Numbered from the stretch's first letter, positions 3-55,330 are shown. The stretch: DNA of 64,000 nucleotides from an uncultured Leptospirales bacterium (GCA_964645775.1 CAZYBU010000008.1:2957-66956); one strand, 5' to 3'. The notes: generated from the letters alone by a model not told the origin. Numbers and translations are program-made.

Positions 3-197
3 TACCTTACCGATAACTATCGCCAACTCAGATGGGAAGTACGGGGAGGCAAATACAGTATCGATTTTCTTGCCGGTACCGGCAGGCTCCGGCAGTCACT
101 GTTAGAAGACAAACCGTGGGACGAATTCCTGGAGAGCATTGAAAATAAGGTAAAGGAATATGACAGAAGGGCGGAGCGCTACAGGGTCTATCCCTGA
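3..197 (+). CDS. 3' end of an unidentified gene (partial, continues upstream of window)
   Basis: Open frame from window edge to TGA at 195-197 (..ENKVKEYDRRAERYRVYP*). Convergent with the minus-strand gene ending at 204. No recognisable domain. Confidence 0.3.
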   Translation, partial: YLTDNYRQLRWEVRGGKYSIDFLAGTGRLRQSLLEDKPWDEFLESIENKVKEYDRRAERYRVYP

Positions 198-4870: not shown

Positions 4871-4945
4871 GGGGTGTTAGCTCAGTTTGGTTAGAGTACC
4901 TGCCTGTCACGCAGGGGGTCGCGAGTTCGAGTCTCGTACACCCCG
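4871..4945 (+). tRNA. tRNA-Asp (anticodon GTC)
   Basis: Cloverleaf read by eye. Acceptor GGGGTGT/ACACCCC, anticodon stem CCTGC/GCAGG with loop CTGTCAC, T-arm GCGAG-TTCGAGT-CTCGT. No encoded CCA. Confidence 0.85.
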
Positions 4946-37898: not shown

Positions 37899-37914
37899 AC
37901 CGATAACTATCGGC
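37899..37914. promoter_or_regulatory. 16-bp palindrome ACCGATAACTATCGG(c) in crotonase-thiolase intercistronic gap
   Basis: Inverted 7-bp arms ACCGATA/TATCGG. Overlaps the crotonase stop codon. Ends 25 nt upstream of the thiolase start. Member of a dispersed family (see findings). Confidence 0.4.
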
Positions 37915-38701
37915 CCTTAAAATTAGCCTTCCGTTTCTCGAGGAAGGCGGTCATTCCCTCCGTCTTGTCTTCGGTGCCCATTACCAGTCCAAAGCACATG
38001 GCCTCCATGGCCAGCCCGGTTTTCAGGTCAGCCTGTATGCCGTTATTTATGGCTGTTTTGGCCATGTAGAGGGCAAAGGCCCCCTTGCTGGCGATCTTAT
38101 CTGCGATTTCCTGGACCTTTTCGTCCAGCTGATCGGCGGATACCACATGGTTAAGCATGCCGATATCCATGGCCTCCCGGGCGGAGATATAGTCACCAGT
38201 CATTATAAGTTCCTTGGCCTTTCCCACCCCTATGAGCCTGGGAAGGCGCTGGGTACCACCATAACCGGGGATGATTCCCAGGCGGATCTCGGGGAGGCCA
38301 AATTTAGCCGAGTCAACGGAGACCCGGATGTCGCAGGAGAGGGCCACCTCGGTACCGCCTCCCAGGGCCACGCCATTTATGCGTGCGATAACCGGCTTGG
38401 GAAAGTTTTCAATGTAGGAACAGATGGCCTGGCCGTTAGGAACTTCGTACACGGTCTCCACGTATCCTTCACCAGCATTCATGATGGATATATCCCCACC
38501 GGAGATAAAAGCCTTGTCTCCCGTACCGGTAAGCACAACCACGTGAATCTCATCATCCTTCAGGATGTCTTTTTCAAGGGCATCCTGTATCTCCAGCATG
38601 GTCACATGCCTGATCGCGTTCATTACTTTGGGGCGATCAACAGCTATGGTGGCTACGGCCCCATCCTTCGTTACCCTGATATCTTCATAGCTCATAATCA
38701 T
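37907..38701 (-). CDS. enoyl-CoA hydratase (crotonase family)
   Basis: Crotonase fold with oxyanion-hole segments (AFISGGDI, GVALGGGTEVAL). Confidence 0.85.
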   Translation of the reverse strand: MIMSYEDIRVTKDGAVATIAVDRPKVMNAIRHVTMLEIQDALEKDILKDDEIHVVVLTGTGDKAFISGGDISIMNAGEGYVETVYEVPNGQAICSYIENFPKPVIARINGVALGGGTEVALSCDIRVSVDSAKFGLPEIRLGIIPGYGGTQRLPRLIGVGKAKELIMTGDYISAREAMDIGMLNHVVSADQLDEKVQEIADKIASKGAFALYMAKTAINNGIQADLKTGLAMEAMCFGLVMGTEDKTEGMTAFLEKRKANFKGR

Positions 38702-38719
38702 TCTCCTTAAGAAACGATC

Positions 38720-39625
38720 TTAAAAGAGGTTTTTGAAGAGGGTTTTTGACCCGTCTTCATGGTAATCATAGAAACCCCTGCCATTCTTTTTACCAAGGCG
38801 TCCGGCTTCCACCATCTTACGATAGAGGATATTGACCGCATCCCTGGGATTGTGTGTGTAATCGTATACCGCGTCACCGGCAGCGACAATGATGTCGAAT
38901 CCGCCAAAATCGGCCAGCTCGCAGGGACCCATGGGATGACCCGCGCCCAGTTTCATGGCCTGGTCGACCTCCTCGGCCGTTGCCGTCCCTTCCAGGACGA
39001 TTTGGGCCGCTTCATGGTAGAGAAGCCCCAGGAGACGATTGACGATAAAGCCAGGAGTATCCTTTACCGTGACCCCGACCTTGCCAATACTCTTGCAGAA
39101 TTCCAGGACCGTATCAACGGTCTCCTGGCTGACGCCAATCGGTTTAACCACCTCAACAAGCTTCATGACAACGGCTGGATTGAAGAAATGCATGCCGATA
39201 ATCCTGTCTGGACGATCGGTGGCTCCTCCTATCTGGGTTACCGGCAGGACAGATGTATTTGAAGCCAGGATTGTTTCCGGCTTGCAGGCCTTATCCAGCT
39301 CGGCGAATACTTTCTTTTTCAGTTCAATGTCTTCGGGAATAGCTTCAATAACCAGGTCCGCATCAGCTGCCATCTTTTTAAGCTCGGTTCCGGTAGAAAT
39401 ACGACCAATGACAGCCTCTCCATCTTCTTTTGATATTTTACCCTTGGCCACAAAGTGTTTATCAATGCTGCCGGATATTTTCTGCATGGCCTTATCCAGG
39501 GCACCCTGATCGACATCATAGATACCTACCGTGAAACCGTTAAGGGCGGATACCTGGGCTATCCCATGCCCCATGGTCCCTGAACCGAGTACCGTCACTT
39601 TTTTGATATTCATGTAATCCTCCAT
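38720..39625 (-). CDS. 3-hydroxyacyl-CoA dehydrogenase
   Basis: VTVLGSGTMGHGIAQ NAD-binding motif. 301 aa with Hbd-like architecture. Confidence 0.85.
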   Translation of the reverse strand: MEDYMNIKKVTVLGSGTMGHGIAQVSALNGFTVGIYDVDQGALDKAMQKISGSIDKHFVAKGKISKEDGEAVIGRISTGTELKKMAADADLVIEAIPEDIELKKKVFAELDKACKPETILASNTSVLPVTQIGGATDRPDRIIGMHFFNPAVVMKLVEVVKPIGVSQETVDTVLEFCKSIGKVGVTVKDTPGFIVNRLLGLLYHEAAQIVLEGTATAEEVDQAMKLGAGHPMGPCELADFGGFDIIVAAGDAVYDYTHNPRDAVNILYRKMVEAGRLGKKNGRGFYDYHEDGSKTLFKNLF

Positions 39626-39657
39626 TTAATTTTCTCTTATAATATCATCACCGGAAA

Positions 39658-40278
39658 TTATGTTCTCCGGGTAATCCCTTCCATAAAGACGAATGTTGTT
39701 GTATCCATAGTCGGTTCCATGGGGAATTCACCGTTCAGGTTACTGTAAACGTATTTCCTGATTACTCCATCAATAGATCCATGAAGCAGGGAGGATAACA
39801 GATCGGGCGGAATCTCTTTTATAAAGATGCCCTTTTCCTGTCCCTGTTTGAAAATATCCGCGATTCTATGGAAATATTGATCATAGAGAATCTGGCAGGT
39901 CTCTTCATAGAAAGCATCCAGCCTGGGAACATCCATGATAAGAACTTTCATCAAATCGGGATGATCTCTGTAGTTGCTATAAAGATAGCCGATCACTTCT
40001 TTTAACTTCTCGTGAGGTGGAACAGAGGAGGCTTCGATTTCATCGAGTTTGCCCAGAAATCGACTCCATGCACTTCGATATATTGTTAGAAGAATCTCTT
40101 CTTTGCTCGGGTAATAATGATAAAAGAGTCCGTATGCGATGTTAGCCTCGTTCATGATATCAGCAATCCTGCAGCGGTAATACCCCTTACGCGCGAATAT
40201 TTTCACAGCAGCTCTTCTTATAAGCTCCTTTTTTGAAATCTCAGCTTTTTTAGCGTACTTTTTCAAAGCATCCTTCAC
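39658..40278 (-). CDS. TetR/AcrR-family transcriptional regulator
   Basis: HTH RRAAVKIFARKGYYRCRIADIMNEANIAYGLFYHYYPSKEEIL, paralogous to 7537..8133. Start codon is GTG at 40276-40278. Confidence 0.85.
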   Translation of the reverse strand: MKDALKKYAKKAEISKKELIRRAAVKIFARKGYYRCRIADIMNEANIAYGLFYHYYPSKEEILLTIYRSAWSRFLGKLDEIEASSVPPHEKLKEVIGYLYSNYRDHPDLMKVLIMDVPRLDAFYEETCQILYDQYFHRIADIFKQGQEKGIFIKEIPPDLLSSLLHGSIDGVIRKYVYSNLNGEFPMEPTMDTTTFVFMEGITRRT

Positions 40279-40290
40279 AAATCACCATGA

Positions 40291-40338
40291 TTGACAGGTC
40301 AGTCAACATGCGCACTGTATCGATTGATTGGTCAATCG
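40291..40338. promoter_or_regulatory. candidate TetR operators: TTGACaggtcaGTCAA (40291-40306) and CGATTGAttggTCAATCG (40321-40338)
   Basis: Two inverted repeats within 60 nt upstream of the TetR start. The second shares the TTGATTGA half-site with the site at 17829. Confidence 0.45.
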
Positions 40339-40385
40339 TCAATATTAATTTTCTTCCATGACTCTTTTTGATAAAAAAAATCAAA

Positions 40386-40404
40386 GATCTGGATAGTTAT
40401 CGGT
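40386..40404 (+). repeat. left 19-bp inverted repeat GATCTGGATAGTTATCGGT
   Basis: Perfect reverse complement of 41157..41175. Contains the GGATAGTTATCGG palindrome-family core. Confidence 0.6.
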
Positions 40405-40469
40405 GCTTTTTTTTCCAAATCAGGCTTCCCGGGCGTGTACCATATATAACACAAAAGAGGAAGAATAGG

Positions 40470-40904
40470 ATGATTGAAACAACTGTTAACATGCACATGA
40501 AGACAAGGTATAAGCTCTTGCAAGCTTCGAATAAGACCGGATTGTGTTTCAACAGGCTAATCAGGTTACTACTGCAGTATTCGCTTAGAGATGAAGATAA
40601 CACTATTTCATCTTTTGGAAGAATACGATACCAGGACAGAAGAGAGACAAAGGACTGGACCAGATTCCATTTAACCCTCGATGAGAGGGATTATGAATTA
40701 TTGCTGGATGTTCGCAAGTTCTACAAGGTATCGGTATCTCTGTTTCTTGCTCGAGCTATTGATACCATATTAAGAACGTTGATAAATCGTATCCTGAAAA
40801 AATCCCTTGATCTGGATAACTATCCAATAAACTGCTATACCATAATACAAGCCACAACAGATAATGGAGATGTATATTGGAAACTGTACTGGGGGATTCC
40901 CTGA
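40470..40904 (+). CDS. small ribbon-helix-helix-like DNA-binding protein (hypothetical)
   Basis: Start set at ATG 40470 (MIETTVN) with AGAGGAAGA SD. The ORF-track start at 40368 has no SD. Central FHLTLDERDYELLLDVRKFYKVSVSLFLARAID fits a beta-strand-helix-helix (CopG/Arc-like) pattern. Internal GGATAACTATCC palindrome at 40813-40824. Confidence 0.5.
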   Translation: MIETTVNMHMKTRYKLLQASNKTGLCFNRLIRLLLQYSLRDEDNTISSFGRIRYQDRRETKDWTRFHLTLDERDYELLLDVRKFYKVSVSLFLARAIDTILRTLINRILKKSLDLDNYPINCYTIIQATTDNGDVYWKLYWGIP

Positions 40905-41156
40905 TTCTGGCAGTTAATCATAAATCAGCATCTCCTGGCAGTTCTTCAGATAAGGTATGATTTATACTGCACCAATACTATTGTCCGTAAAGAAGACGCT
41001 TGATAATACATCGATGAATTTCTTGCAATTTCAGGCAGGTGAATTATTCTCTATCAATGGAACAGGATTGTCCAGGGGTTAATTTAACTGAAAAATTCCA
41101 CTTTTCTCGAACAATCATGAATATGAATAGATTCTCATGTTGTCCCAGAAAAATGA

Positions 41157-41175
41157 ACCGATAACTATCCAGATC
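41157..41175 (-). repeat. right 19-bp inverted repeat (reverse complement of 40386..40404)
   Basis: ACCGATAACTATCCAGATC on the plus strand. Together with the left copy it brackets a 790-bp segment. Confidence 0.6.
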
Positions 41176-41178
41176 AAT

Positions 41179-43008
41179 TTAGCTATTATGACATTTCTTT
41201 TCCATTCCTGGTATCTGTTCAAGCAGCTGCCCCAGGTTTTCAGGGAAAAGAGCCGCACGACCCTTTTCCAGAAGGTTATAATTACTTTGCCAGTAATTCA
41301 TCAGCTGTTTTCTGTATTTATCAGCAATCTGCACCGAATCATTTACCTGCTCGCGCGCAAAACGATTCAAAAACTGATATTTCCATGAGATAGTTATCGC
41401 CAACTTTCGTTCAAGGGCAACAAGGTCTTTCCAGAGAGGTCTACCTTTTTTATCAATGGTTTTTCGAACCCTTTCTTCGAAATCAAGGATACTCCTGGCA
41501 ATGGATCTCCGAAAAACGTCTGCCTTGATAATATCATCCGTTATATGAAAGAAATGATATCCCTTCACCGCAAACCCGACAGCAAGAGAAAAGCGTTTAG
41601 GAAATCTACCAAGTACATTGAAAAGGAATGTAAGGTATTCCAAACCGTGCGATGAGAACGTCTGCCGAACAAGTGAGTTGAGAAATGCCCTGATGTCCCG
41701 CAGTGTCAGATTATAGGAAAGATAATCATTGACCTGAAGTCTCTCCAGCAGCTTGAGACACCTCTGGAAATAGCGTTTCGGATCATAAATACGTTTTAAA
41801 AGATCCCGATACCCCATAACCAGTTCACTTTTATCCATCACCGGTATAAAGTTTAGTTCCAGGTCATGGGTATTATTTCCCCTCAGACCATCCAGAAGCC
41901 TCCCTTCTCGCTTCAACCGTCGCGCCAGACGTGTTCTGGGTAGAGCCACCAGCAAGCCTACCATGGCAACGGGGATGGCTGCCTTCTGAATAAATTCAAG
42001 CTGACGATCAAATATGGTACTGTCATCGGAATCAAATCCAACGATAAACCCGGCGGTTACCTCGAGGCCCTTTCTCTGGATTGTTTCGACGGATTCCAGT
42101 ATATCCATCCGTGTATTCTGATGTTTATGTGCCGCAGCAAGTGTCTCATTGTCCGGCGTTTCAATTCCTATAAAGACCATATCAAACCCTGATTCCACCA
42201 TAAGGTCCATCAGGTCTTCATCTTCCGCCAGATTAATGCTTGCCTCTGTATATAACCTGAAGGGATAATTCCTTTCTTTCTGCCACTCTGATACGTGTTT
42301 AAGCAGATCACGAACTTTTCCCCGATGACCTATAAAGTTGTCATCCACGATAAAAATACCACCTCGGTATCCCGTATCATACAAGGCCTCCATCTCAGCC
42401 AGAAAACAACCGGGTTTCTTGGTGCGGGTAACACGACCGAACATCTCGATTATATCACAGAATTCGCAGTTATAGGGACACCCTCTTGAGAACTGAAGAC
42501 ACATGCTCACGTAATCATCATGATCGATCAGGTCAAAACGGGGTACCGGTGTCTGATTAAGTGATGGCTTTGTTTCATCCTCGTATACATGTTTTGCAAC
42601 GCCCAACTCATAATCTCGTATAAATTCCGGAAGAGTTATTTCAGCTTCATTGAGCACGAAATGATCCACACCTTCGATCTTTTCTCTCGAAGAGGTAGGA
42701 TAGGGTCCACCCGCCACAACAATAATTCCTGCTTCCCGGCATCTTTGTATGGTCTCTTCAAATGATTTTTGCTGAACGATCATGGCGGAAAGGAAGACGG
42801 TATCCGCCCAATCCAGGTCTTTCTTCTCCAGTTTTCGCACATTCAGGTCAACCAGTCGTACCTCCCACTCATCCGGCAGGAGCGCTGCCACGGTCAATAA
42901 TCCCAGGGGAGGAAAGGTCGCTTTCTTGTCAATAAAGGACATGACGTAACGGTAACTCCAGTACGTGGAAGGGATCTCGGGATAAATCATCAGTACTCTT
43001 CGATTCAT
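41179..43008 (-). CDS. B12-binding radical SAM protein (with C-terminal DUF4070-like region)
   Basis: N-terminal cobalamin-binding Rossmann segment (PLGLLTVAALLP). CxxxCxxC cluster (GCPYNCEFCD). 609 aa. Confidence 0.8.
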   Translation of the reverse strand: MNRRVLMIYPEIPSTYWSYRYVMSFIDKKATFPPLGLLTVAALLPDEWEVRLVDLNVRKLEKKDLDWADTVFLSAMIVQQKSFEETIQRCREAGIIVVAGGPYPTSSREKIEGVDHFVLNEAEITLPEFIRDYELGVAKHVYEDETKPSLNQTPVPRFDLIDHDDYVSMCLQFSRGCPYNCEFCDIIEMFGRVTRTKKPGCFLAEMEALYDTGYRGGIFIVDDNFIGHRGKVRDLLKHVSEWQKERNYPFRLYTEASINLAEDEDLMDLMVESGFDMVFIGIETPDNETLAAAHKHQNTRMDILESVETIQRKGLEVTAGFIVGFDSDDSTIFDRQLEFIQKAAIPVAMVGLLVALPRTRLARRLKREGRLLDGLRGNNTHDLELNFIPVMDKSELVMGYRDLLKRIYDPKRYFQRCLKLLERLQVNDYLSYNLTLRDIRAFLNSLVRQTFSSHGLEYLTFLFNVLGRFPKRFSLAVGFAVKGYHFFHITDDIIKADVFRRSIARSILDFEERVRKTIDKKGRPLWKDLVALERKLAITISWKYQFLNRFAREQVNDSVQIADKYRKQLMNYWQSNYNLLEKGRAALFPENLGQLLEQIPGMEKKCHNS

Positions 43009-43372
43009 GTAGCTTTCCTCTGCTCTCTTTCGGTCATTTTTTCACCTATCATGGTAGACGATTCTATCACATATAGTATTTTGTGGAATAAATACAATAT
43101 TTATTCTTTACATTTATTTGCTAAAAAAATTCAATTATCCACGGCGCCTTCTGCGGCGGGAATAATTGAATTTTTGTTTGCACTTAAAGGCATTTTCAGG
43201 ATAATTACTAGAATAAATATACTGTTAATACCTGTTCAAATCAACAATTATGAATTTATCTTTTTACTGTAACCGGTTAAAGGTAATGGTTTCATAATTG
43301 TACGACTCACAGATCCCGTGAGCAACCCTGACAAATGAACAGGTAGTAGCAGATAATCTGCGAGGAGGAACC

Positions 43373-44068
43373 ATGTTTCTCGGAATTGACCCCCTGTACT
43401 GGATGATGATGATACCGGTATTTCTGCTTTCAGCTGTGGCGTCCTGGAAAGTAAAGAGTACTTTCAAAGAATTTTCCAAAAAGGCAAACAGCTCAGGTCT
43501 GACCGGGGCCGAAATTGCGGCCCAGATCCTTCGAAGAAACGGGCTTTCCCATGTACGGGTTGAGCAGGCCAGCGGTTTCCTGTCTGACCATTACGATCCC
43601 ACAAAAAAGGTTGTCCGCCTGTCACCGGACGTGTACGGTAGCAGGTCGATCTCCGCCATAGGCGTCGCCGCCCATGAAACAGGACACGCCATCCAGCATG
43701 CCAGATCATACAGTCCTCTTGTACTGAGAAATATGCTGGTACCGGTAGCGTCGATCGGGTCGAACCTTTCCTGGATCATAATTTTCGCCGGGTTTATCTT
43801 CGGTGCCCTGGGGCTGGTCAAGATAGGCATAGTCCTGTTCAGCGCCGTTGTTGTGTTCCAACTGCTGACCCTGCCCGTTGAATTCAACGCCTCTACCAGG
43901 GCAAAGGAGCTTCTTGGAAAATACGGCATCGTTTCAAGGACGGATGCCCAGGGAGTGGCGAGTGTACTGAACGCGGCAGCCATGACCTATGTCGCGGCTG
44001 CAGCCAGCGCCATTATGACCCTTCTCTATTTCCTTCTCAGGGCCGGTATCCTGGGAGGGAACGATTAG
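43373..44068 (+). CDS. putative zinc metallopeptidase (Zn_peptidase_2-like membrane protein)
   Basis: HETGHAIQH zinc-binding motif. N- and C-terminal TM helices. GAGGAGG SD. Confidence 0.75.
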
Positions 44069-44072
44069 AATC

Positions 44073-45104
44073 ATGACGGCTTCCCCGGAGGAGCCATTTA
44101 ACAGAACCACGTTCACCCGTTTTCTAATAGAAGAACAGCGCCATATAACAGGCGCTACGGGTGAATTCACCTCACTAATGAACGATGTGGTAACAGCCTG
44201 CAAGGTCGTTTCCCACGCGGTTAACCACGGAGCCCTGCAGAACGTTCTGGGCAGTTCCACCAGCCGGAACATCCAGGGCGAGACCCAGAAAAAACTCGAT
44301 ATCATCGCCAATGACCTGATGATAAACTCAAGCGAATGGGCGGGAAACTGCGCCGCTCTCGCTTCGGAAGAGATGGAGGATATATATCACATACCGCCCC
44401 AGTATCCCAGGGGGAAGTACCTCCTGGTATTTGATCCCCTGGACGGTTCTTCCAACATAGATATCAACGCTCCCGTGGGGACCATATTCTCTATCCTGAA
44501 ATACAACGGCTTACAATCTGATCCCCTGGAAAAAGATTTTCTGCAACCCGGACAGGAACAGATAGCGGCCGGGTATGCCATCTACGGACCCCAGACCCTG
44601 ATGGTTCTCACAACAGGTAACGGTGTAAACGGCTTTACCCTGGATACGAACATCGGTGAGTTCATCCTTACCCATCCCGATCTGCGTATCCCGGAAGAAA
44701 CCCATGAGTTCGCCATAAACATGTCCAACATGCGTCACTGGGAAGAACCGGTTCGTCGTTACGTACAGGAATGCCTGGAAGGAAGAAGCGGAATCCGGGA
44801 AAAGGACTTCAACATGCGATGGATCGCTTCCCTTGTCTCGGAAGTTCACAGGATTCTCATGCGTGGAGGGGTCTTCATGTATCCCATGGATGATCGCATC
44901 AGGGAAAAGGGAGGAAGGCTGCGACTGATGTACGAAGCCGGCCCCATGGCCTTCATCGTTGAGCAGGCCGGAGGAAAGGCCGTTACAGGTAAAGATCGAA
45001 TTATGGACGTCCAGCCTGAAAGCCTTCACCAGAGGATACCGGTTATCCTCGGATCAGCCCGTGAAGTTGAACGAATACATCGCTATTACCGGGAGATGAC
45101 CTGA
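44073..45104 (+). CDS. fbp: fructose-1,6-bisphosphatase class I
   Basis: [15 protein letters not shown] metal-binding signature and GKLRLMYEA C-terminal motif. Confidence 0.9.
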
Positions 45105-45120
45105 TCTTCACCCCGATCCT

Positions 45121-46029
45121 TTATGTAAACTCTTTTATCCAGTCCAGGGCTATGGGATAGATCTCTTCAGGCGCTTCCCTGTGGGTCAGCATGGTAATGT
45201 GATCATAATCATTGCGAAAACCTGCCTTCTTGCCCAGAAGAACGTACTTCCAGTTATCCTGCCCTGATTCCCTGGCCGTTCGCATCACGTCAACAGGATG
45301 TCCAAGGCACCGGTCCTGGCTTGCCGCCAGGTAGAGAGCGGGAGGAAGGGTAGCTTCATTGGCGGCTTTGCCGTAATCGAAACCATCATCCGGGTCGATC
45401 CACCTGTCCCGGGTGGCCCAGAGCATGCAGTGCAGATGAGTGCCGTCTGATTCATGATCAGACGCGATACCAAAGGGGAGACTCTCAGCCGGCAGGTATC
45501 CATGCTTTCGAATGACCCTGCGGCAATACCAGCTCCAGATAGCATCAATCTGAAGTATTCTTGTGGGATTGATCACGCTTACGTATCTCTTGGTCCCGAA
45601 ATAGGTCAGGCTCTTAACCTTCGAAACATTTTCAGGAAAACGGACAAGGTGTGAGTTCATAATCACCCCTCCCCAGGAATGGGCCACCCAGTGCTGGGGG
45701 ACGTCGCCTTTTATTTCCCGGATACTGTTCATAAGCGCAGGTATGTCTTCTACAATCTCCTCTGTCTGGCTGAAGGTCGATTCAGCCGAGATGGGAGGTT
45801 CACCTCCTCCCCTTCCCCTCCTGTGAGCGACAAATACATCATAGCCCTGACGGGCCAGCCAGGGAGCCAGCCCCGCACCCCTTTCGCTGTAGAACACCTT
45901 CCCGTTCTCTATGGAACCGTGCAGCATGAGAACCGGCTCACCTTTCGGGTCCTTTTTGATTCTCCGCACATGCAGACTGCTTCCATCCGGAACCGGAATC
46001 ATAATCGAAGAATAATCCAGGTTATTCAT
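45121..46029 (-). CDS. alpha/beta-fold hydrolase
   Basis: VLMLHGS...HSWGG nucleophile elbow. 302 aa. Confidence 0.75.
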   Translation of the reverse strand: MNNLDYSSIMIPVPDGSSLHVRRIKKDPKGEPVLMLHGSIENGKVFYSERGAGLAPWLARQGYDVFVAHRRGRGGGEPPISAESTFSQTEEIVEDIPALMNSIREIKGDVPQHWVAHSWGGVIMNSHLVRFPENVSKVKSLTYFGTKRYVSVINPTRILQIDAIWSWYCRRVIRKHGYLPAESLPFGIASDHESDGTHLHCMLWATRDRWIDPDDGFDYGKAANEATLPPALYLAASQDRCLGHPVDVMRTARESGQDNWKYVLLGKKAGFRNDYDHITMLTHREAPEEIYPIALDWIKEFT

Positions 46030-46275
46030 AGAGGTATCCTGCTAAATTGTACAATTCAAGAATGAACTATATTCTCAGAGGATGATACATCTGGAAAGAA
46101 GATTATTCCAGTTGAAACGGTTGAAAACATTATATGAACAGAAACGATACAAAAATGAAGATTGAATACCCGGGTGCCATGCCCAAAATGTTCTCTCCAA
46201 CGAACGGACCACCGTCGACCTCGCCTTTTATCATATTCGGTTTAGCGAGGCAGGATCGCGCATACCGATTCAGGA

Positions 46276-46872: not shown

Positions 46873-46953
46873 TTTATCCCTCTTTTGATTATATTTAATA
46901 GAATATAAATATTTGTTGACATTTTGCTTCGCAGGATCCATATTGCTTACATG

Positions 46954-47766: not shown

Positions 47767-48927
47767 AACCAGGTTCCCCACCTTTTCACCTGCCGGTTCA
47801 ATATCCTTATGCCTTGAATAATCAAGACATTTCTCATAGATTTCCGTAAGTCGATCGACTGATTTCTCGATGGTGTATTCCTGGGCCAGCTCATGACAGA
47901 CTTTACCTGTTTCTTTCACCAGATCCCTGTTTTCCATAAGGTGGTCAATCCTGGCCGCGAGAGAATCAGCATTATCGTACTGAAAAATGAAACGCCCATC
48001 CTTCACAAACTGCTGGGCGGCGCTTGCGGGAGAGTTTGACACCATGACCGGAAGTCCTTCCGCCATAGCTTCCAAAACAGTGAGACTTTCAAGTTCCACA
48101 AGGGAAGGGTGGACATAAAGATCGGCGCTGCTGTAATAGGTCAGCAGATCATTCGCCTCCACGTGACCGGTGCAGAAGGCGTGAGGAAGTCGTTTCATCT
48201 TCTCTTCAATTCGAGGTTTTTCAGGCCCGTCACCTACCAGTATCAACTGAATATCTTCTCTGAAGGAAGAGCGGTTCACGGCTTCCACCAGAAGAGCGTG
48301 GTTCTTTTCCCTGGAGATGCGACCCACACTCAGAATAACGAACCTTCCCTGAAAATCAAAACGCTCGCTTTCCTCATTTTTTTTAAACTCCGGCAAAAAT
48401 CCATTGGAAAGAACGACACATTCCGACTTCAGGCCATTTTTATACAACTCGTTTCTGCCAAGCATACTGGGAGAGAGTACTATATGCGCATGGTCGTAAC
48501 ATTTACTGATAAAAAGCCTGTGAAGTTTTCTGACAAGAAAATCGGAATTGATGCCCATATTATATAGTATATTCTCCGGCTGGACATGGTAACTGCAAAC
48601 CAGAGGCTTATTCATCTCCCTGGCCCATTGCGCAGTCTTCCATCCCAGGATGAAGGGGAATTGAACATGAACAAGATCGATCTCTTCAAGAACCTCCCGG
48701 ATTCTGTCCTCTACGGGCCAGCCAAAGTACATCCCATTTTTAATCATCTTCTGCTTGAGAAAGGGAATAAAGAAAAAGGGCATGCCGACCAGACCTTCTT
48801 CATCCTGACCCGCTGCAATAACCGTTACTTCATGCTCCCTTCGAAGATACTCCACAAATCGACGGGCCGATTGCACTCCCCCGTTTTTGACGTCATCAAA
48901 CCTGTCGATCACCATCGCAATTTTCAC
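47761..48927 (-). CDS. glycosyltransferase family 4 (GT-B)
   Basis: C-terminal EGLPVMVSNSPA...E-x7-E region typical of GT4. Confidence 0.8.
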   Translation of the reverse strand: MKIAMVIDRFDDVKNGGVQSARRFVEYLRREHEVTVIAAGQDEEGLVGMPFFFIPFLKQKMIKNGMYFGWPVEDRIREVLEEIDLVHVQFPFILGWKTAQWAREMNKPLVCSYHVQPENILYNMGINSDFLVRKLHRLFISKCYDHAHIVLSPSMLGRNELYKNGLKSECVVLSNGFLPEFKKNEESERFDFQGRFVILSVGRISREKNHALLVEAVNRSSFREDIQLILVGDGPEKPRIEEKMKRLPHAFCTGHVEANDLLTYYSSADLYVHPSLVELESLTVLEAMAEGLPVMVSNSPASAAQQFVKDGRFIFQYDNADSLAARIDHLMENRDLVKETGKVCHELAQEYTIEKSVDRLTEIYEKCLDYSRHKDIEPAGEKVGNLVL

Positions 48928-49120
48928 CTGTTCCCCCCCTGCAATTATCTCTATACTGTTAAGAAAAATCTAATGATCATTCCGATTCAATTCAAATCGA
49001 ACATGTGGGGGGATACATTGAAAAATGTCAAGAACTGAACATAAAAGGTCGAAATATACAGAAACTAGCGTGGTTCCGATGGTTCCTTCAGGAAATATCG
49101 AACGGAACATATCAATTTTG

Positions 49121-49136
49121 ACCGATAGTTATCGGT
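49121..49136. promoter_or_regulatory. 16-bp perfect palindrome ACCGATAGTTATCGGT
   Basis: Just downstream of the Gfo/Idh/MocA gene stop (49142) in the gap before the GT4 gene. Flanked by GGTACC-like extension. Confidence 0.4.
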
Positions 49137-49141
49137 ACCCC

Positions 49142-50308
49142 TTATCTTGTTAAGGGTAAATCAACAGGATTACCGGTTTCCGCGGAACGATAGGACGCGA
49201 AAACAAGTTCAATGTCAGACCGGGCGTCCAGACCACTGACCCTGGGAGAACGTCCTTCCCGGATTGAAGCGATAAAATCGAGAATTGCCTCCTCGTAAAC
49301 ATTGTATCCGGAGAAATCGGTTGTGATATCGAGGAGCTTTCCTTTCGAAAAAGTCTTCTCAATGGCCTTCCACGGGATATCGTCATCATCCATGGTCTTC
49401 ATGTACTCCTTAACTCCTCTCACAACTTCCTCTGGCGGTTTTTCCTGAAACTCTTCCCGTATCTCGCTGTACACCTCAATGCCTCCGATCTCAAACTGGC
49501 GGTGGCCGGGAAGCCTCATCTCCGGGTTCTCGATGATGCTTCCTCTCGATCCGAAAACAGACAGGAATGGGACCTTCTTCGGATTCCTGATGTTCCAGCT
49601 TTCAATGATATTAGTCGTTATAGAATCCACGTGATCGAGCATAACAACCGATGTTTCGTCCACCTCCCATTTGCTATCCGGTCTCATCGTTCGCGCGAAA
49701 ACACGTTTCACCGGTCCACCCAGCTGGTTTGCCGCGGCCATAAGGTGAACACCCCGGTCAAAGAGGACACCGCCCCCTCCTGTACTTTTTTTCATCCTCC
49801 ATTCATAGGCCTTCATGGCCGACGTGATCTCAATGGCATAGGATAACTCATGAATATTGACCATGAAAGGCCGTCCTATATCTCCCCTTTTCATGATCTC
49901 GAGGGAGCGTCTGATGGCAGGCTCGTACCGGAAATTCTCGCAAACAGCCAGGACAAGGCCATTTTTTGCGGCCGCATCGATCATCCGGTCCGCCTCATCC
50001 AGGGAATTGGCTATCGGCTTTTCCAGGAAGACATGTTTCCCGTTCTCCAGGGCGGAGAGGGTCATCTGCAGATGAAGATGATGGGGCAGACAGATATCGA
50101 GCGCGTCAACATCGGAACTCAAAACGTCATCCAGGCTTTCAAAAATACCGGAGGCCTCAAAATCCTCCTTCGTTTTTCCGGCTGCCTGACGGTTTATATC
50201 GAATACATGAAGATCGATACGATCTCTGTGTTTCTGATACTCTGCCGCGTGGACCCGGCCGATCATACCACAACCTACAAGGCATATGGATATCATTTCA
50301 CCATTCAT
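49142..50308 (-). CDS. Gfo/Idh/MocA-family oxidoreductase
   Basis: N-terminal GCGMIGRVHA Rossmann motif and EKP motif. Confidence 0.8.
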   Translation of the reverse strand: MNGEMISICLVGCGMIGRVHAAEYQKHRDRIDLHVFDINRQAAGKTKEDFEASGIFESLDDVLSSDVDALDICLPHHLHLQMTLSALENGKHVFLEKPIANSLDEADRMIDAAAKNGLVLAVCENFRYEPAIRRSLEIMKRGDIGRPFMVNIHELSYAIEITSAMKAYEWRMKKSTGGGGVLFDRGVHLMAAANQLGGPVKRVFARTMRPDSKWEVDETSVVMLDHVDSITTNIIESWNIRNPKKVPFLSVFGSRGSIIENPEMRLPGHRQFEIGGIEVYSEIREEFQEKPPEEVVRGVKEYMKTMDDDDIPWKAIEKTFSKGKLLDITTDFSGYNVYEEAILDFIASIREGRSPRVSGLDARSDIELVFASYRSAETGNPVDLPLTR

Positions 50309-50346
50309 GGTATGGACACCTGCTCCTTATTCTTCCTGAAAGACGA

Positions 50347-50604
50347 TTATTCCTTTCTCATCTCTTTTTCGATCATCTTCTCCTTAAATCGGCCGGAAAA
50401 GATAAAGACACCGGCACCGTGAAATAAAACACCGATTCCCCATCCCATAAGAGGCCATATATGCCACCTGTATCCGGACGAGGTAGTACTATTAATGTAA
50501 TAGAGAACAATGTTTACGACCACGTAAACAGCCAGGTGAACAAAGAAACCCATCTTCGCTTCAACCCGTTCTTTCGCTTTTCGGTATCGTTCTTCGTCAG
50601 TCAA
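50347..50604 (-). CDS. 2TM-domain small membrane protein
   Basis: 85 aa with two hydrophobic helices flanked by a basic N-terminus. Confidence 0.55.
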   Translation of the reverse strand: MTDEERYRKAKERVEAKMGFFVHLAVYVVVNIVLYYINSTTSSGYRWHIWPLMGWGIGVLFHGAGVFIFSGRFKEKMIEKEMRKE

Positions 50605-50623
50605 TGGTATCCTCCATAAATAT

Positions 50624-51172
50624 TTACATTTGTAAAGCCGCCCTGAGACCCAGTATCACGTACCGGGTCAGCAGGATGGAAAGGATTACAGGCAGGATCA
50701 TCTGCGCGTTCGGCAGGAGGGCGAACTTCCTGCCGAGCATCGGCATCTCCGGGCTGTAGCCCCACCAGTCCCGGGCCAGTCCGATCATCTCGATCACGAC
50801 CTGCCAGAATATCCCCAGGAGAAGAGCGATAAGGTATCCCGCCCAGATCGGAAAAGCGATCTCTCCCTGGCCAAAGAGGGTACCTCCATCAATAAACCAG
50901 AAGCGGTCCATGAAAAGAAGGCTCACCACCCAGTAATGGCCCAGTATGAGAAGGCCGTCAAAGGCGGAGGCGAACCAGAAAACACCGGCAAAGGTCTTTC
51001 TCATAGTAAATGTATTTTCACCGAACCAGTATCTTTTCTCAACACTCTTGTCTTTATTATAGAAATTATAATACCCCTTATAGTAGGGCATGTGGGATAT
51101 CTCCCAAACGAAGTTGAAGAGAAACCCGTAGAGCCAGATGTATAGCTCCGGGATAATGAAGTATTGTTCCAT
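50624..51172 (-). CDS. hypothetical integral membrane protein
   Basis: 182 aa, aromatic-rich hydrophobic helices. No known motif. Confidence 0.5.
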   Translation of the reverse strand: MEQYFIIPELYIWLYGFLFNFVWEISHMPYYKGYYNFYNKDKSVEKRYWFGENTFTMRKTFAGVFWFASAFDGLLILGHYWVVSLLFMDRFWFIDGGTLFGQGEIAFPIWAGYLIALLLGIFWQVVIEMIGLARDWWGYSPEMPMLGRKFALLPNAQMILPVILSILLTRYVILGLRAALQM

Positions 51173-51181
51173 GAAGACCTC

Positions 51182-52588
51182 CTATCCGTCCCGGTGAAAC
51201 CGATAACCGGTCCCTTTCTTAAGTCGGGCCAGCTCCTTCTTTAGTCCCGGTACAAGCTTTTTGCCCCGGGCCGTTTTATAGAGGTTGCTTTTCTCCTTCG
51301 GGTCGGCTGCCAGGTCGAAAAGTTCTCTGGGCCGTTTGTCGCTCTGATACTCAATGTACTTGTAGCGCCCGGTGCGGACCGCCGTTATTCCCGGTATGGG
51401 TATAGGGTAGACCGGAAAGTGCTCGTAGAGCCAGGACTCCCGGCCGGGCGCGTCGCTTCTTTGCAGTACCGGTTTCAGGCTCCGCCCCTGCATGGTCTCC
51501 GGCGCGGGTATGCCTGCCAGGTCCAGGAGAGTGGGGGCCAGGTCGATATTCAGGGCCATCTGGGAGGCCCGCCGCCCCGGTTGCCGGATGCCGCGGGGAT
51601 ACCGGACCATGAAGGGTATGCGAATCGATTCCTCGTAGGCGAGGCGCTTGTCATAAAGACCGTGTTCCCCGAAGAAATGGCCGTTGTCCCCCGCGTAGAC
51701 AAGGATGGTCTCATCGGAAATGCCCATCTCATCGATCTTGTTCAGGACCCGGCCCACCTGCTCGTCCACGGAGACAACGGTCTCACAGTAGTTTCTGTAC
51801 ATCATGTTCATGGGCATGGGAGCTCCGACAAACATGTGATTATTGGTATAGGTGATGAAGGGGTCCGATTCCGGGGGAAGCTGAAGATCCACACCGTCAT
51901 AAAGATTGTTCAGATGATCAGGGGGCAGGAAACCGAAGTGTACCGCCTTGTGGGACAGGTAGAGACAGAAGGGGTTGCTCCGCTTCTTCTCGATAAATTT
52001 CAGGGCAAAGTCGGTCAGATCCTCGGTGATATACTTACCGGGTCTGGGTGTCTCCTTCCCGTCAATGATAAGGGGGCAATCTTTGTAGACGCCCTGGCCT
52101 CCCTCCTTTGTGAAAGTTATGAAATGGTCCACTCCCCTGAGGTCGGGCACCCCTTCTCCCGGCATGTGCCACTTCCCGATAAATGCGTTCTCGTATCCCT
52201 TCTCCTTCAAAAGTTCCATGAAGTGTATGTTGCCGTTGTCCCAGGGCGTGTGGTTGGTCACCACACCGTGGGTGTGGGCGTACTGCCCGGTTAAAAAGCT
52301 GGCCCGGGAGGGACTGCACAGGGAGGTGGTACAGAAACTGTTCTCGAAAAGCACGCCTTCACGCCCGATTCGGTCCAGGTTAGGCGTTTCAATGAATGGG
52401 TGCCCCATACAGCTGAAGGCGTCCCATCTGTGATCGTCGGTCAAAATGAATATGATGTTGGGAAGCTTCTCCCTGCCGGCAAGCACGGACGGTAAAGATG
52501 AGAGGCCCACGGCGGTTACGGCGGCCTTGCCTGTGCCTTTCAGAAAATCTCTTCGTGTTATATGGTTCCTGTTGCCATCCTGTTTCAT
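51182..52588 (-). CDS. Tat-exported sulfatase (Cys-type, formylglycine-dependent)
   Basis: Twin-arginine signal (RRDFLKGTG). CSPSRASFLTG formylglycine motif. LTDDHRWD metal-binding motif. Confidence 0.85.
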   Translation of the reverse strand: MKQDGNRNHITRRDFLKGTGKAAVTAVGLSSLPSVLAGREKLPNIIFILTDDHRWDAFSCMGHPFIETPNLDRIGREGVLFENSFCTTSLCSPSRASFLTGQYAHTHGVVTNHTPWDNGNIHFMELLKEKGYENAFIGKWHMPGEGVPDLRGVDHFITFTKEGGQGVYKDCPLIIDGKETPRPGKYITEDLTDFALKFIEKKRSNPFCLYLSHKAVHFGFLPPDHLNNLYDGVDLQLPPESDPFITYTNNHMFVGAPMPMNMMYRNYCETVVSVDEQVGRVLNKIDEMGISDETILVYAGDNGHFFGEHGLYDKRLAYEESIRIPFMVRYPRGIRQPGRRASQMALNIDLAPTLLDLAGIPAPETMQGRSLKPVLQRSDAPGRESWLYEHFPVYPIPIPGITAVRTGRYKYIEYQSDKRPRELFDLAADPKEKSNLYKTARGKKLVPGLKKELARLKKGTGYRFHRDG

Positions 52589-52601
52589 TATTCACCTCGC
52601 T

Positions 52602-53150
52602 TCATAGAAAAAGAAGGGTATAGAGATCCATAAAGACATAGTAGTAACTGTGTCCCCCGTTCCAGAGACCTGCGAAGGTAATAACCAGGCCGGCCACAAG
52701 GAAGATTCCGCTCGCGGAAGAGAATATCCGCACGCCTTCGTCTTTACGGTGACGAATGCGGCAGGCAAGCTCCGCAAGACCAATGGAAAGGATATTAACC
52801 CCGATATTACCCAGGATGAAGGGATGGACCAGGAGGAAAAGGACCTCAAGAAAACTGTAGATTCCAGCGAAAGACCAGATCGTTTTGAAAACCCAGAGAA
52901 CAGGCGAGGCAAGGGAAGCCATGTACCGTTCCATGGGGGCGGAGCCACGTTTAAAGGCGAAGGGAACCACGAAAAGGGGCCCGAGCCAGATGCTGAGAAA
53001 CATCAGTATAACGGATGGATAGAGTATGACCTTTCTGAGAGCGCCGCTTCCCAGGTGCCGGGAAAAATCATAGGCCAGGCTGGAAACAACCATGACCGTG
53101 AAAACGACGAGGGCCGGCAGGACGGCCCGTTTAAACAGTGAATGATTCAT
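52602..53150 (-). CDS. hypothetical integral membrane protein
   Basis: 182 aa, about 5 TM helices. Confidence 0.5.
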   Translation of the reverse strand: MNHSLFKRAVLPALVVFTVMVVSSLAYDFSRHLGSGALRKVILYPSVILMFLSIWLGPLFVVPFAFKRGSAPMERYMASLASPVLWVFKTIWSFAGIYSFLEVLFLLVHPFILGNIGVNILSIGLAELACRIRHRKDEGVRIFSSASGIFLVAGLVITFAGLWNGGHSYYYVFMDLYTLLFL

Positions 53151-53174
53151 CCTGCCTCCTCTGGTCCCGGCGGG

Positions 53175-53190
53175 ACCGATAGTTATCGGT
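53175..53190. promoter_or_regulatory. 16-bp perfect palindrome ACCGATAGTTATCGGT
   Basis: Lies between the MFS gene stop (53194) and the downstream membrane-protein start (53150). Confidence 0.4.
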
Positions 53191-53193
53191 ATA

Positions 53194-54558
53194 TCAGGCC
53201 TTTTCGGCCTCCATCTTCTCTATATCATCGAGTATCTCATTATATCGCTTCTCGTTTATAGGATAGAACCGGAGGGCCACTATAGCCAGGAGAAAGATAA
53301 AGGCCGAAATGGGCCCCAGGAGAAGCCGAATACCGAACTGCGACAGGGCGGACTGGGCCACTTCAGGAACGTATCCCACCAGGGAGAGTACACCGCCGGT
53401 GATGGCCAGGGCGATAGCCTGGCCGATCTTGATGCCGAAGGTCCAGACCCCGTAAAAGGCCCCCTCGGTCCGCTCGCCTGTGACCAGGTAGTCGTACTCC
53501 ACGGCGTCCGGAACCATGGCGTAGGGCATGGCGTAGGTGAGACCCAGACCGATACCGGCCGGTACCATCATATACGTGGCCAGGTTAACCGCCTCAATAC
53601 CGAAGAGGGAGAGGTGGCCGATGAAGAATACCACGACAAGCATGCCCCCCAGAATGGCCATGCCCGATCCATAGACGAGCTTCTTACCGAGCCGTTTCGA
53701 AATAACAACGCTAAGGGGGATAGTCACCATGGCCGTCACAAGGAGAAGGACCATGGCCACGGTCGTGGCGTCCTCGGAATGGTGGATATACTTGAAGTAG
53801 TAGATGGCCACGCTCATGATTACCGTCAGGGCCGTAATGTGCAGGGTATAGGTTGCCAGGATCAGAAGATAAGGCTTGTTGCGGAAAACCTTGAGGTAGG
53901 TCTTAATAAAGTTCCCTGTGACCTCAACGTCTTTTCGTTCAGGCTCACGCACGGAGAAGAATGTAATGAGCGCCGTTATGAGCATAACCCCTCCGAAGAT
54001 GGTGCCCATGGCTGAAAAACCTATATTCCGGTCCGGGAAAAGTTTTACGATGGGAAGGGCGGCCCCGGCCGCGACTATGGTTCCGATGACAGCAAAGGCG
54101 AAACGGTATCCGTTCAGGGCTGTCCGCTCGTGAAAGTCCCGGGTAAGCTCCGGTGTCAGGGAATTGTAGGGGATGTTAACCGCCGTGTAAGTTGTATTGA
54201 GCAGCATAAAGGCAAGAAGTCCCCACACGAAAAGGGCCGCCTGGGTGTCGAGCTGGGGATTGGTGAACATGATAATCGTCGCTATGAAAAGGGGAAATGA
54301 TCCGAAGAGAAGCCAGGGGCGGCGGCGGCCCCAGCGGGTCTTTGTGCGGTCCGAAAGGTATCCCGCCACCGGGTCAGTGACCGCGTCCCATATTTTCCCC
54401 AGGGCGATAATAACACCCGCAAGACCGGCCGCGATACCGACCGTGTCGGTCAGGTAATTCATGAGCCACAGACCAACAGCCGTGAAAAAGAGGTTGCCAC
54501 CCAGGTCGCAGACCCCGTACCCCATTTTTACGCCCACAGAAAGTTTTCCCTGTTCCAT
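53194..54558 (-). CDS. MFS transporter, glycoside-pentoside-hexuronide:cation symporter family
   Basis: GPH signature GLWLMNYLTDTVG..DPVAGYLSDRT. 12 TM helices. Confidence 0.8.
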   Translation of the reverse strand: MEQGKLSVGVKMGYGVCDLGGNLFFTAVGLWLMNYLTDTVGIAAGLAGVIIALGKIWDAVTDPVAGYLSDRTKTRWGRRRPWLLFGSFPLFIATIIMFTNPQLDTQAALFVWGLLAFMLLNTTYTAVNIPYNSLTPELTRDFHERTALNGYRFAFAVIGTIVAAGAALPIVKLFPDRNIGFSAMGTIFGGVMLITALITFFSVREPERKDVEVTGNFIKTYLKVFRNKPYLLILATYTLHITALTVIMSVAIYYFKYIHHSEDATTVAMVLLLVTAMVTIPLSVVISKRLGKKLVYGSGMAILGGMLVVVFFIGHLSLFGIEAVNLATYMMVPAGIGLGLTYAMPYAMVPDAVEYDYLVTGERTEGAFYGVWTFGIKIGQAIALAITGGVLSLVGYVPEVAQSALSQFGIRLLLGPISAFIFLLAIVALRFYPINEKRYNEILDDIEKMEAEKA

Positions 54559-54768
54559 AGCACCATCCTGCGAAGTGATATTAATAACCGCTGGTTACCC
54601 TACAGGATGCGTCCGGGTAAGGCAATACAATTATTGATTTCTATATCAATTACGTAGAGGGCTTTTTCAGGTAACAGATACCCGACTTCGTCGGGAATTC
54701 GTCGAAACCGCCCGGTTCCCGATATTCCAGGAATAAAAAAACAAAAAGTTGGTTTTTAATCTTTGCGA

Positions 54769-54993
54769 CTATAGCAAATCATGGATGCTGCCCGGCAAGG
54801 ATGCCGCAGTGTCCAGCTCTATTCTCAGGGCATCATCCAGCCTCGATAACCTGTCCATGGAAAGGGAGCCAATGAAATCCGTTAAAGCGCCTTTGGCTAT
54901 ACTGATCAATTCATCACAGCAGATACAGCTTTCATGCTTTAATCCATCCTCCACGCCAACAGGAAAACCACATCTGTAACAATAAATTTTCAT
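54769..54993 (-). CDS. small Cys-rich hypothetical protein
   Basis: 74 aa, CYRC...CICC cysteine cluster. Divergent from the Mop gene. Weak support. Confidence 0.35.
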   Translation of the reverse strand: MKIYCYRCGFPVGVEDGLKHESCICCDELISIAKGALTDFIGSLSMDRLSRLDDALRIELDTAASLPGSIHDLL

Positions 54994-55055
54994 TGCCTCC
55001 AGGAAAACGCTATGTTAAAGGAAATCCCTGGCAACAAAATGAGAACAAGGCCGTC

Positions 55056-55268
55056 ATGAAGATAAGCGCGAGAAATCAGATAAAGGGTACAGTCAGGAAA
55101 ATCATCCACGGCTCCGTGAATACCGAGGTGGTCATTGAAATCGCCGATGGTACGGAGATTATTTCCATTATAACAAAGGAATCGGCCGATCGCATGGACC
55201 TTTCGGAAGGCATGGAGGTCTTCGCCGTGGTCAAGGCCTCCAACGTGATGATCGCAGTTGAGGACTGA
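55056..55268 (+). CDS. molybdopterin-binding Mop/TOBE-domain protein
   Basis: MKISARNQIKGTV...VMIAVED classic TOBE. Start placed at the internal ATG. Confidence 0.8.
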   Translation: MKISARNQIKGTVRKIIHGSVNTEVVIEIADGTEIISIITKESADRMDLSEGMEVFAVVKASNVMIAVED

Positions 55269-55280
55269 CATCCAGGTGGT

Positions 55281-55296
55281 ACCGATAACTATCGGC
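55281..55296. promoter_or_regulatory. 16-bp palindrome ACCGATAACTATCGG(c)
   Basis: 13 nt after the Mop stop and 35 nt before the CPBP start. Flanked by GGTACC / CACC. Confidence 0.4.
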
Positions 55297-55330
55297 ACCC
55301 TCTATCAAATTTAGACTCATAAGGAGCCTT

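Follow-up and report, generated by a model that had tools for sequence, protein, structure and literature searches.

What reads a 16-bp palindrome that recurs, nearly identical, in the gaps between genes of a single stretch of chromosome? The question is raised by 64,000 nucleotides of DNA from an uncultured Leptospirales bacterium (hereafter the window, with positions counted from its first letter), where such palindromes lie at 37899-37914, 49121-49136, 53175-53190 and 55281-55296. An original prediction, made from this DNA alone, saw in them either binding sites for a dimeric DNA-binding protein or a repeat family. We propose that a lineage-specific family of tandem ribbon-helix-helix (RHH) proteins specifically recognises, in double-stranded DNA, the unit underlying these palindromes, the 13-mer ACCGATAACTATC. 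The member of this family in the window is encoded at 40470-40904. On the comparative evidence set out below, we give this reading a probability of roughly 55%.

The window comes from the chromosome of an uncultured spirochaete. Metagenome-assembled contigs, GCA_963991465.1 and an ENA contig of 535 kb among them, match it with 95.5-99% of nucleotides identical, and a phage or plasmid origin was discarded because megablast of the 36-56 kb region found no match in phage and plasmid collections. Motif and protein both lie outside the curated protein and RNA families of Pfam, NCBIfam and Rfam. In the searchable full texts of the literature the 12-mer of the motif was not found, and searches on REP elements (repetitive extragenic palindromes) and RHH proteins gave nothing relevant. 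We rate the system as known in kind, that is, as a sequence-specific DNA-binding protein with dispersed cognate sites. What is unusual, as far as sequence comparison can tell, is that the site is fixed in the coding sequence of nearly all members of the family, and that the compatible tetrapeptide is completely recoded in the window species.

A 13-mer repeated within and between genes

Once oriented alike, all copies share the asymmetric 13-mer ACCGATAACTATC, which occurs in the window 11 times exactly and three times with one mismatch, against about zero expected. One more copy, at 41389, carries two mismatches, and the resulting spectrum of 11:3:1 consists mostly of perfect matches. For the 12-mer core CGATARYTATCG we count seven exact occurrences, and 14 once a single mismatch is allowed, compared with 0.39 expected from dinucleotide-preserving shuffles, and none of 100 shuffles reached the observed count. 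The motif is over-represented within the window.

The four intercistronic 16-mers are the full-palindrome form of this unit, and they had been placed correctly: ACCGATAGTTATCGGT stands exactly at 49121-49136 and 53175-53190, ACCGATAACTATCGGC at 37899-37914 and 55281-55296, and a GG(G/T)ACC flank accompanies all four on one side. The full palindrome can be described as (TA)TACCGATA-AC-TATCGGTA(TA), with a pseudo-symmetric centre, GATAACTATC, and an asymmetric ACC flank. The motif measures 13 bp as a core, or 16-22 bp as a palindrome with perfect arms, and has no GTAG head. The related copies at 40386-40404, 40812-40826 and 41157-41175 were found again, as was an 11-mer, TATCGCCAACT, shared by the window start and positions of about 41394-41404.

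Half of the window copies (7/14) are genic. The original prediction had held those encoding I-V-I-G to be probably driven by codon usage, but the spelling of the tetrapeptide I-V-I-G (IVIG) rules this out: in the called genes of the window and of 12 kb of the same species beyond both window ends (about 76 kb), IVIG is written ATAGTTATCGGT in six cases out of six, whereas codon usage predicts this spelling with a probability of about 0.8% each. The single IVIG of the extra 12 kb, in an aminotransferase gene, conforms as well, and the wobble positions of the codons before IVIG (GCG, ACG, CTG, ATG) lengthen the match as far as the protein permits. In the window, IVIG is encoded by the copies at 6435-6450 (minus strand, in the plus-strand gene 5929-7530), at 27723-27738 (plus strand, in the thiolase-like gene 26721-27890 on the minus strand), at 32273-32288 (plus strand, at codon 7 of the FAD-dependent oxidoreductase gene 30785-32302 on the minus strand) and at 57304-57319 (minus strand, as L-I-V-I-G in the flavodoxin-like gene 57080-57658 on the plus strand), and by a one-mismatch copy at 55660-55672 (minus strand) in a CPBP gene. 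Other copies encode other peptides. At 9-24 (plus strand), ACCGATAACTATCGCC is read as T-D-N-Y-R; the NamZ-like gene concerned is cut off by the window start, and the copy falls in its 3' part. One-mismatch copies give E-I-V-I-A at 30398-30410 (AGCGATAACTATC, plus strand, in gene 29525-30754 on the minus strand) and A-I-T-I-S at 57448-57463 (plus strand, again in the flavodoxin-like gene), and a weaker copy at 41388-41399 (minus strand, where it reads GGCGATAACTATC) encodes A-I-T-I near the 3' end of a radical-SAM gene. Since most genic copies are half-sites unable to form hairpins, what is read in the motif is its sequence.

Variation between strains tells of the same sites. Three co-specific strains, 1-4.5% divergent from the window, show 0 substitutions per 312 site nucleotides, where 10.8 are expected from the average rate. 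Judged by this comparison the sites are under purifying selection, and the conservation at orthologous positions by which the original prediction could be checked is thus found within the species.

When one genome per species was scanned for ACCGATAACTATCGGY, at least 113 stretches came back. Among the matches listed, about half come from some 19 metagenome-assembled genomes of Spirochaetota or 'Leptospirales', with which we count CALEUQ ('uncultured bacterium') because it encodes the RHH family; the rest are chance-like single hits in unrelated taxa. Within these same matches, the motif-rich genomes are confined, like the protein family, to uncultured Spirochaetota; 65 of 93 core sites in relatives are intergenic although 87% of the DNA is coding, an enrichment of about 15-fold; and the sites of CAVSFD010000002.1 (4.8 Mb), at about 0.19, 2.57, 2.93, 3.03, 3.48 and 4.63 Mb, look dispersed.

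In relatives the motif also forms arrays, of which the window has none (fetched loci, cited by number: L035, with four copies at a 43-bp period, L021, L038, L099, L006 and L083). Centre-to-centre spacings between sites peak at about 21, 42-43, 62-63, 84 and 105 bp, and the spacers are unrelated between loci. A Rayleigh test for a period of 10.5 bp gives p = 1.5e-7, or 5.5e-4 when one pair per locus is used, and the mean phase is close to zero. Sites that lie on the same side of the helix, as seen here, are a signature of a protein that binds duplex DNA.

A second short repeat, GGGGTCAGAGYAAC, GGGGTCAGAG(C/T)AAC, is common in relatives, where intergenic arrays contain it in alternation with the palindrome (L035 6898-7083; L034 4877-4931; L006 28-172; L067 4629-4707; L075 7802-7813), the composite unit measuring 43 bp in L035. 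It is not present in the window, whose best match to the repeat has one mismatch and is at chance level.

The tandem RHH family and the site in its genes

The open reading frame (ORF) at 40470-40904 (plus strand), in a low-GC stretch, encodes a 144-aa protein (P0003) with two predicted RHH repeats in one chain. It is a divergent member of a Spirochaetota-restricted family, for which a profile search gathered 374 protein clusters of about 144-160 aa. Every named cluster is a hypothetical protein from Spirochaetota, several paralogs occur within single genomes, and the sources are metagenome-assembled spirochaete genomes, recovered from digesters, sludge and sediments. For this family no model of Pfam or NCBIfam scores above threshold, the weak hits being RHH_5 and DUF6364, and PADLOC and PHROGs return marginal RHH-type or repressor matches only.

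An AlphaFold2 model of the protein, with a mean predicted local distance difference test (pLDDT) score of 83.5, shows the beta-alpha-alpha order of the RHH fold twice: a strand at 2-9 and helices at 10-23 and 27-40 make up repeat 1 (residues 2-40), a strand at 63-70 and helices at 72-85 and 89-110 make up repeat 2 (residues 63-110), and a C-terminal beta hairpin follows. Invariant or near-invariant residues, among them E3, T4, T5, W63 and H67, are found in both predicted beta strands. Compared with solved structures by Foldseek, the model is matched best by F-plasmid relaxosome chains, which we take to be TraY, together with DndE, AvtR and VirC2, the last of these ranking lower. AvtR, VirC2 and TraY are single-chain double-RHH DNA binders, and for TraY and VirC2 the target is specific duplex DNA.

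Motif and family are linked through the family's own genes, since several exact motif matches in relatives fall within homologues of ORF 40470-40904, where they encode T-D-N-Y-R-Y. We fetched 80 metagenome loci by protein similarity, a choice that leaves the sample unbiased as to the motif, and obtained 65 distinct full-length family genes. In 51 of these, [T/A/S]DNY is encoded at one constant place, about +325 nt, with hardly any freedom in the codons: Thr is ACC in 40 of 40 cases (28% elsewhere in the same genes), Asp is GAT in 51 of 51 (74% elsewhere), Asn is AAC in 51 of 51 (31%) and Tyr is TAT in 50 of 51 (73%). The codon that follows begins with C in 49 of 51 genes, and its residue varies between Q, R, H, L and P. 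Invariant synonymous codons next to a variable residue indicate that the constraint on the embedded site acts on the nucleotides and not on the peptide. The model agrees, in that the residues encoded by the motif (113-119) form a loop with pLDDT below 50 between repeat 2 and the C-terminal hairpin.

Further sites are concentrated around family genes, no more than about 700 bp away: on the upstream side they lie at -22 to -163 nt (about 11 of 67 family loci), on the downstream side at +284 to +687 nt. A subfamily that encodes TDNN in place of TDNY carries a variant motif, ACCGATAACAATCGGT, with an AACAAT centre. This variant is dispersed too, with 18 exact 12-mers in the fetched loci against about 0.1 expected.

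The window's own family gene lies between the two arms of a perfect 19-bp inverted repeat built from the motif. The left arm, GATCTGGATAGTTATCGGT, at 40386-40404 (plus strand) and 65 nt upstream of the RHH start, is a hybrid site in which a variant half, CTGGATA, is joined to a canonical half, TATCGGT; it overlaps a promoter-like -10 hexamer, GATAGT, in a region whose promoter-like hits are not above shuffled controls. The right arm, at 41157-41175 (minus strand; ACCGATAACTATCCAGATC on the plus strand), is placed between the convergent RHH and radical-SAM genes. Within the gene, at the family's conserved internal position, stands a degenerate site, CTGGATAACTATCCA (40812-40826, plus strand), which encodes L-D-N-Y-P. 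A shufflon or other invertible segment was considered here and rejected: three strains share one orientation, and the sequence past the downstream site encodes, by eye, no alternative C-terminus.

The surroundings of family genes are ordinary chromosomal ones (MobB, CoaE, a chemotaxis receptor (MCP), TetR with beta-oxidation genes, radical-SAM), and no conserved partner gene was found among the neighbours. As there is no such partner, and as the contexts differ while each is syntenic between genomes, the family genes do not look mobile, and a mobile element was rejected for the same reason. Two loci have a TetR-family gene directly upstream of the family RHH gene, with an exact motif in frame as T-T-D-N-Y-R-D (L124 3210-3908 and L133 2-484); the TetR gene of the window has no motif at the equivalent position. 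In the low-GC CALEUQ, near-identical 3' parts of the family gene, each with a perfect 20-bp palindrome, are found on four contigs (L003 5818-6090; L008 5819-5947; L069 4795-5022; L073 1-264), which suggests a recent multiplication of the gene there, unlike the stable paralogs seen elsewhere.

Candidate readers of the site

We infer that the RHH protein is what reads the motif, and the whole of its physiological role is put forward on the same footing. The two RHH repeats of one chain would pair into a pseudo-dimer, so that one protein would occupy one site, and the two-stranded beta ribbon of this pseudo-dimer would read the centre GATAACTATC together with the asymmetric ACC flank. Such a single-chain pseudo-dimer suits the asymmetric core better than a symmetric dimer would. 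Of the dimeric DNA-binding protein first proposed, the DNA-binding part is therefore kept, with strong comparative evidence pointing to ORF 40470-40904 as the putative reader, and the symmetry is given up, the core being an asymmetric 13-mer. Where neighbouring sites are spaced by multiples of about 21 bp, the bound proteins would all sit on one side of the helix and would probably cooperate by way of the C-terminal beta hairpin. A site in the protein's own coding sequence, often joined by more in the promoter or 3' flank, could provide autoregulation or loading in cis, and the other copies, whether intercistronic, convergent or genic where IVIG or TDNY is tolerated, would be binding sites kept by selection. 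Their likeliest uses would be as transcriptional roadblocks or operators inside operons, or in a chromosome-wide structuring of the kind served by parS, NBS and matS.

Several observations weigh against recognition by the RHH family. The internal site of the window's own member is the degenerate one described above. Predicted DNA-contact residues were not found to covary with the two site variants, the N-terminal strands of TDNY and TDNN proteins looking alike, and the divergent paralogs of a genome seem to share one site, which is unusual for regulators. Promoter regions are not preferred in relatives, where convergent regions hold 9 of 52 intergenic sites and make up 19% of intergenic length. 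Nor does the placement of sites 15-35 nt before the next start codon, as first described, extend beyond the window: it holds there for three of the four intercistronic copies (24-34 nt) and fails for 49121-49136 (about 193 nt), and in relatives the distances range broadly from 2 to about 400 nt. This use of all intergenic classes in proportion to their length, at such broad distances from start codons, is unlike a classical operator regulon. The 42-43 bp spacing mode comes partly from units that have been duplicated, L035 being an example. At 69-82% protein identity, orthologous positions no longer carry the sites; the closest MFS orthologues (82% and about 69%) have other neighbours and no site, and this comparison is informative only inside the species. 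Finally, in the wider clade IVIG is spelled by the motif in only one of seven cases, which makes its saturation specific to the window's species.

Much of what was found between genes would also suit a REP-like hairpin element, spread by a mobilising activity and serving at most as an mRNA stabiliser or structural element, with the RHH link secondary. Sites are enriched about 15-fold between genes and in every intergenic type, convergent ones included; they form tandem arrays in relatives, often interleaved with GGGGTCAGAGYAAC; they have been gained and lost between species; and exact copies dominate (11:3:1). The full palindromes are, moreover, predicted to form hairpins. The original prediction had called an RNA hairpin implausible on account of a 2-nt centre, but a stem of 6-8 bp with a 4-nt loop is predicted, and loop size is no ground for dismissing it. 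A REP-like origin nevertheless seems unlikely to us. Genic copies result from synonymous or conservative recoding and not from insertion, and most are half-sites that cannot fold; folding z-scores are unremarkable, with energies no different from those of shuffled sequences; and array spacing is kept while spacer sequences differ. The repeat family first considered as an alternative thus finds support in the intergenic arrays of relatives and none in the recoded genic copies and unrelated spacers. REP elements are imperfect palindromes of 20-40 nt with a 5' GTAG-type head, and lie only outside genes. The present motif shares with REP/BIME elements and their RAYT genes (REPtrons) the short intergenic palindromes, the clustered intergenic arrays and a gene flanked by inverted copies (40386-40404 and 41157-41175), but neither the palindrome type with its GTAG-type head nor the flanked Y1 (HUH) transposase gene was found, and the protein associated with it has no recognised catalytic domain. 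No Y1/RAYT transposase was seen among the called or Pfam-annotated genes of the window-equivalent strain loci, nor beside family genes or arrays, where array-side ORFs were judged by eye, without a Pfam scan. A REP-like element would also leave unexplained why one DNA-binding family has an invariant site in about 80% of its genes.

The same predicted stems of 6-8 bp could belong to an RNA element, either an intercistronic hairpin or a site for a protein or small RNA close to ribosome-binding sites, by which the downstream cistron would be tuned in its translation or stability. It is supported by the position of three of the four intercistronic copies shortly upstream of a start codon, together with relatives in which the motif abuts the Shine-Dalgarno sequence (e.g. 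L161, L167, L171, L032). We find this quite improbable, because the motif occurs in both orientations relative to transcription, also separates genes that converge, and is found inside genes as half-sites that do not fold, because folding energies equal those of shuffled sequences, and because the phasing, in multiples of 10.5 bp, speaks for duplex DNA. A known RNA family was excluded, Rfam at gathering thresholds having given only the tRNA gene at 4871-4945 (plus strand), its sole match in the window. Intrinsic terminators were excluded as well, since no T-run follows any site and a terminator scan misses the sites. Very improbable, too, is a molecular drive of the uptake-signal or cyanobacterial HIP1 type, in which biased uptake, recombination or repair would multiply the motif, with the RHH genes carried along or acting as machinery. 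The saturation of every compatible IVIG position in the species and the use of both genes and intergenic regions recall the uptake sequences USS of Pasteurellaceae and DUS of Neisseria, which occupy compatible reading frames. USS and DUS are driven by competence receptors and reach about one copy per kb genome-wide, far above the density of about one site per 6 kb in the window and one per 30-60 kb in relatives. No link to competence or repair was found, and the drive would not explain the fixed position within the family, the helical phasing or the clustering by family genes.

A further candidate is the TetR regulator encoded next to the RHH gene (39658-40278, minus strand), upstream of the beta-oxidation operon that holds the site at 37899, for which the motif would be the operator controlling this operon and other genes. 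An unrelated TetR gene in L124 likewise neighbours a family gene. However, different palindromes of a typical kind, TTGACAGGTCAGTCAA (40291-40306) and CGATTGATTGGTCAATCG (40321-40338), lie just upstream of the window's TetR gene and look like the repressor's own operators; the majority of sites, in the window as in relatives, have no TetR gene nearby, and the motif follows the RHH family and not TetR. The TetR explanation is hardly credible on this evidence.

Recognition by the RHH family has its closest functional analogy, as we see it, in parS. In B. subtilis a parS site lies inside spo0J, the other parS sites being found in and between genes, and Noc/NBS, SlmA/SBS and MatP/matS are chromosome-wide site systems of the same order. 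Like these, the present motif would be a 13-16 bp palindrome read as sequence, scattered through genes and intergenic DNA, with selection at synonymous positions and, as for ParB/parS, one copy within the gene of the presumed binder. It differs from them in the fold, which is here predicted to be a single-chain double RHH and there a ParB helix-turn-helix CTPase, a TetR fold or MatP; in having several paralogs per genome, a strong intergenic enrichment and phased arrays; and in its binder, which is putative. Neither a ParB-type helix-turn-helix/CTPase nor a ParA-like partner accompanies the motif, as the predicted fold is that of RHH and no conserved partner of family genes was found. Clustering near the replication origin, as in ParB/parS systems, is not suggested either by the sites on CAVSFD010000002.1, which among the matches listed look dispersed.

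The closest structural relatives would be TraY, VirC2, AvtR and the array-binding RHH proteins. RHH proteins that bind sites in arrays include CopG (with a 13-bp pseudo-symmetric element), Arc/Mnt, MetJ with its metboxes, omega, ParG, ParR and the double-RHH AvtR. The present family resembles them in its predicted beta-alpha-alpha fold, short pseudo-palindromes, phased tandem arrays and sites at its own gene, and departs from them in the fusion of two RHH units with an extra C-terminal hairpin, in the site within the coding sequence of nearly every member, and in its many non-promoter and genic sites. The relaxosome accessory proteins TraY (F plasmid) and VirC2 (Ti plasmid) are the best structural matches to the window protein as modelled, but no relaxase, oriT context or type IV secretion genes were found near any family gene.

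A bolder extension, which we offer tentatively and regard as doubtful, is that uncultured Spirochaetota possess a hitherto unrecognised chromosome-wide protein-site system. The single-chain double-RHH proteins would load at the 13-bp site in their own gene and be bound at hundreds of sites under selection, among them phased arrays between genes, intercistronic positions and all coding positions at which the motif can be written. They would thereby organise the chromosome or block transcription across the genome, as a functional analogue of ParB/parS, Noc/NBS and MatP/matS on a different fold. If the RHH family does read the motif, a family without a Pfam or NCBIfam model would gain a function, and the case would be a very clear one of a DNA site constraining a protein, with T-D-N-Y fixed by the site and not by the fold. 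It would also imply genome-wide selection on a 13-mer, strong enough to recode every compatible tetrapeptide. To our knowledge, uptake sequences, parS and sites like them are the main other cases of such a pattern. A new kind of chromosome organisation or of operon tuning could thereby be revealed in a phylum whose regulation is little understood.

Genes around the intercistronic sites

The site at 37899-37914 belongs to a beta-oxidation operon of TetR, 3-hydroxyacyl-CoA dehydrogenase, enoyl-CoA hydratase and thiolase genes, where it overlaps the end of the hydratase gene and precedes the thiolase start (37873) by 25 nt; it is the same in strains L206 and L207, and the minus strand after it reads TCCCACCGGGA. 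The perfect 16-mer at 49121-49136 separates a GFO/IDH/MocA oxidoreductase gene, whose stop codon (49142-49144) it follows by 5 nt, from a glycosyltransferase gene, whose start at 48927 is some 193 nt further on. A second perfect 16-mer, at 53175-53190, comes 3 nt after the stop of an MFS/GPH transporter gene, precedes a membrane-protein gene by 24 nt, and is followed on the minus strand by TCCCGCCGGGA. This transporter has palindrome sites on both sides in the window, and orthologues with 69-78% identity stand divergent beside a family RHH gene in L150 (2440-4435), L151 and L166 (3-1059).

The remaining site, at 55281-55296, lies between a TOBE/Mop-type molybdate-binding gene and a CPBP protease gene starting at 55331. 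The TOBE/Mop gene (about 55056-55268, plus strand, about 70 aa), whose stop precedes the site by 12 nt, is easily missed on account of an overlapping, longer antisense ORF (54990-55298). That this site marks a decayed family gene was ruled out, as a six-frame profile search of the window matched only the gene at 40470 and the region proved to be TOBE/Mop.

Two of the sites have a further element in common. Directly 3' of the palindrome, 37915-37925 and 53164-53174 share TCCC(A/G)CCGGGA in the minus-strand reading, a small GC hairpin just before the ribosome-binding site, and a related sequence, TACCACCTGGA, is present at the site at 55281.

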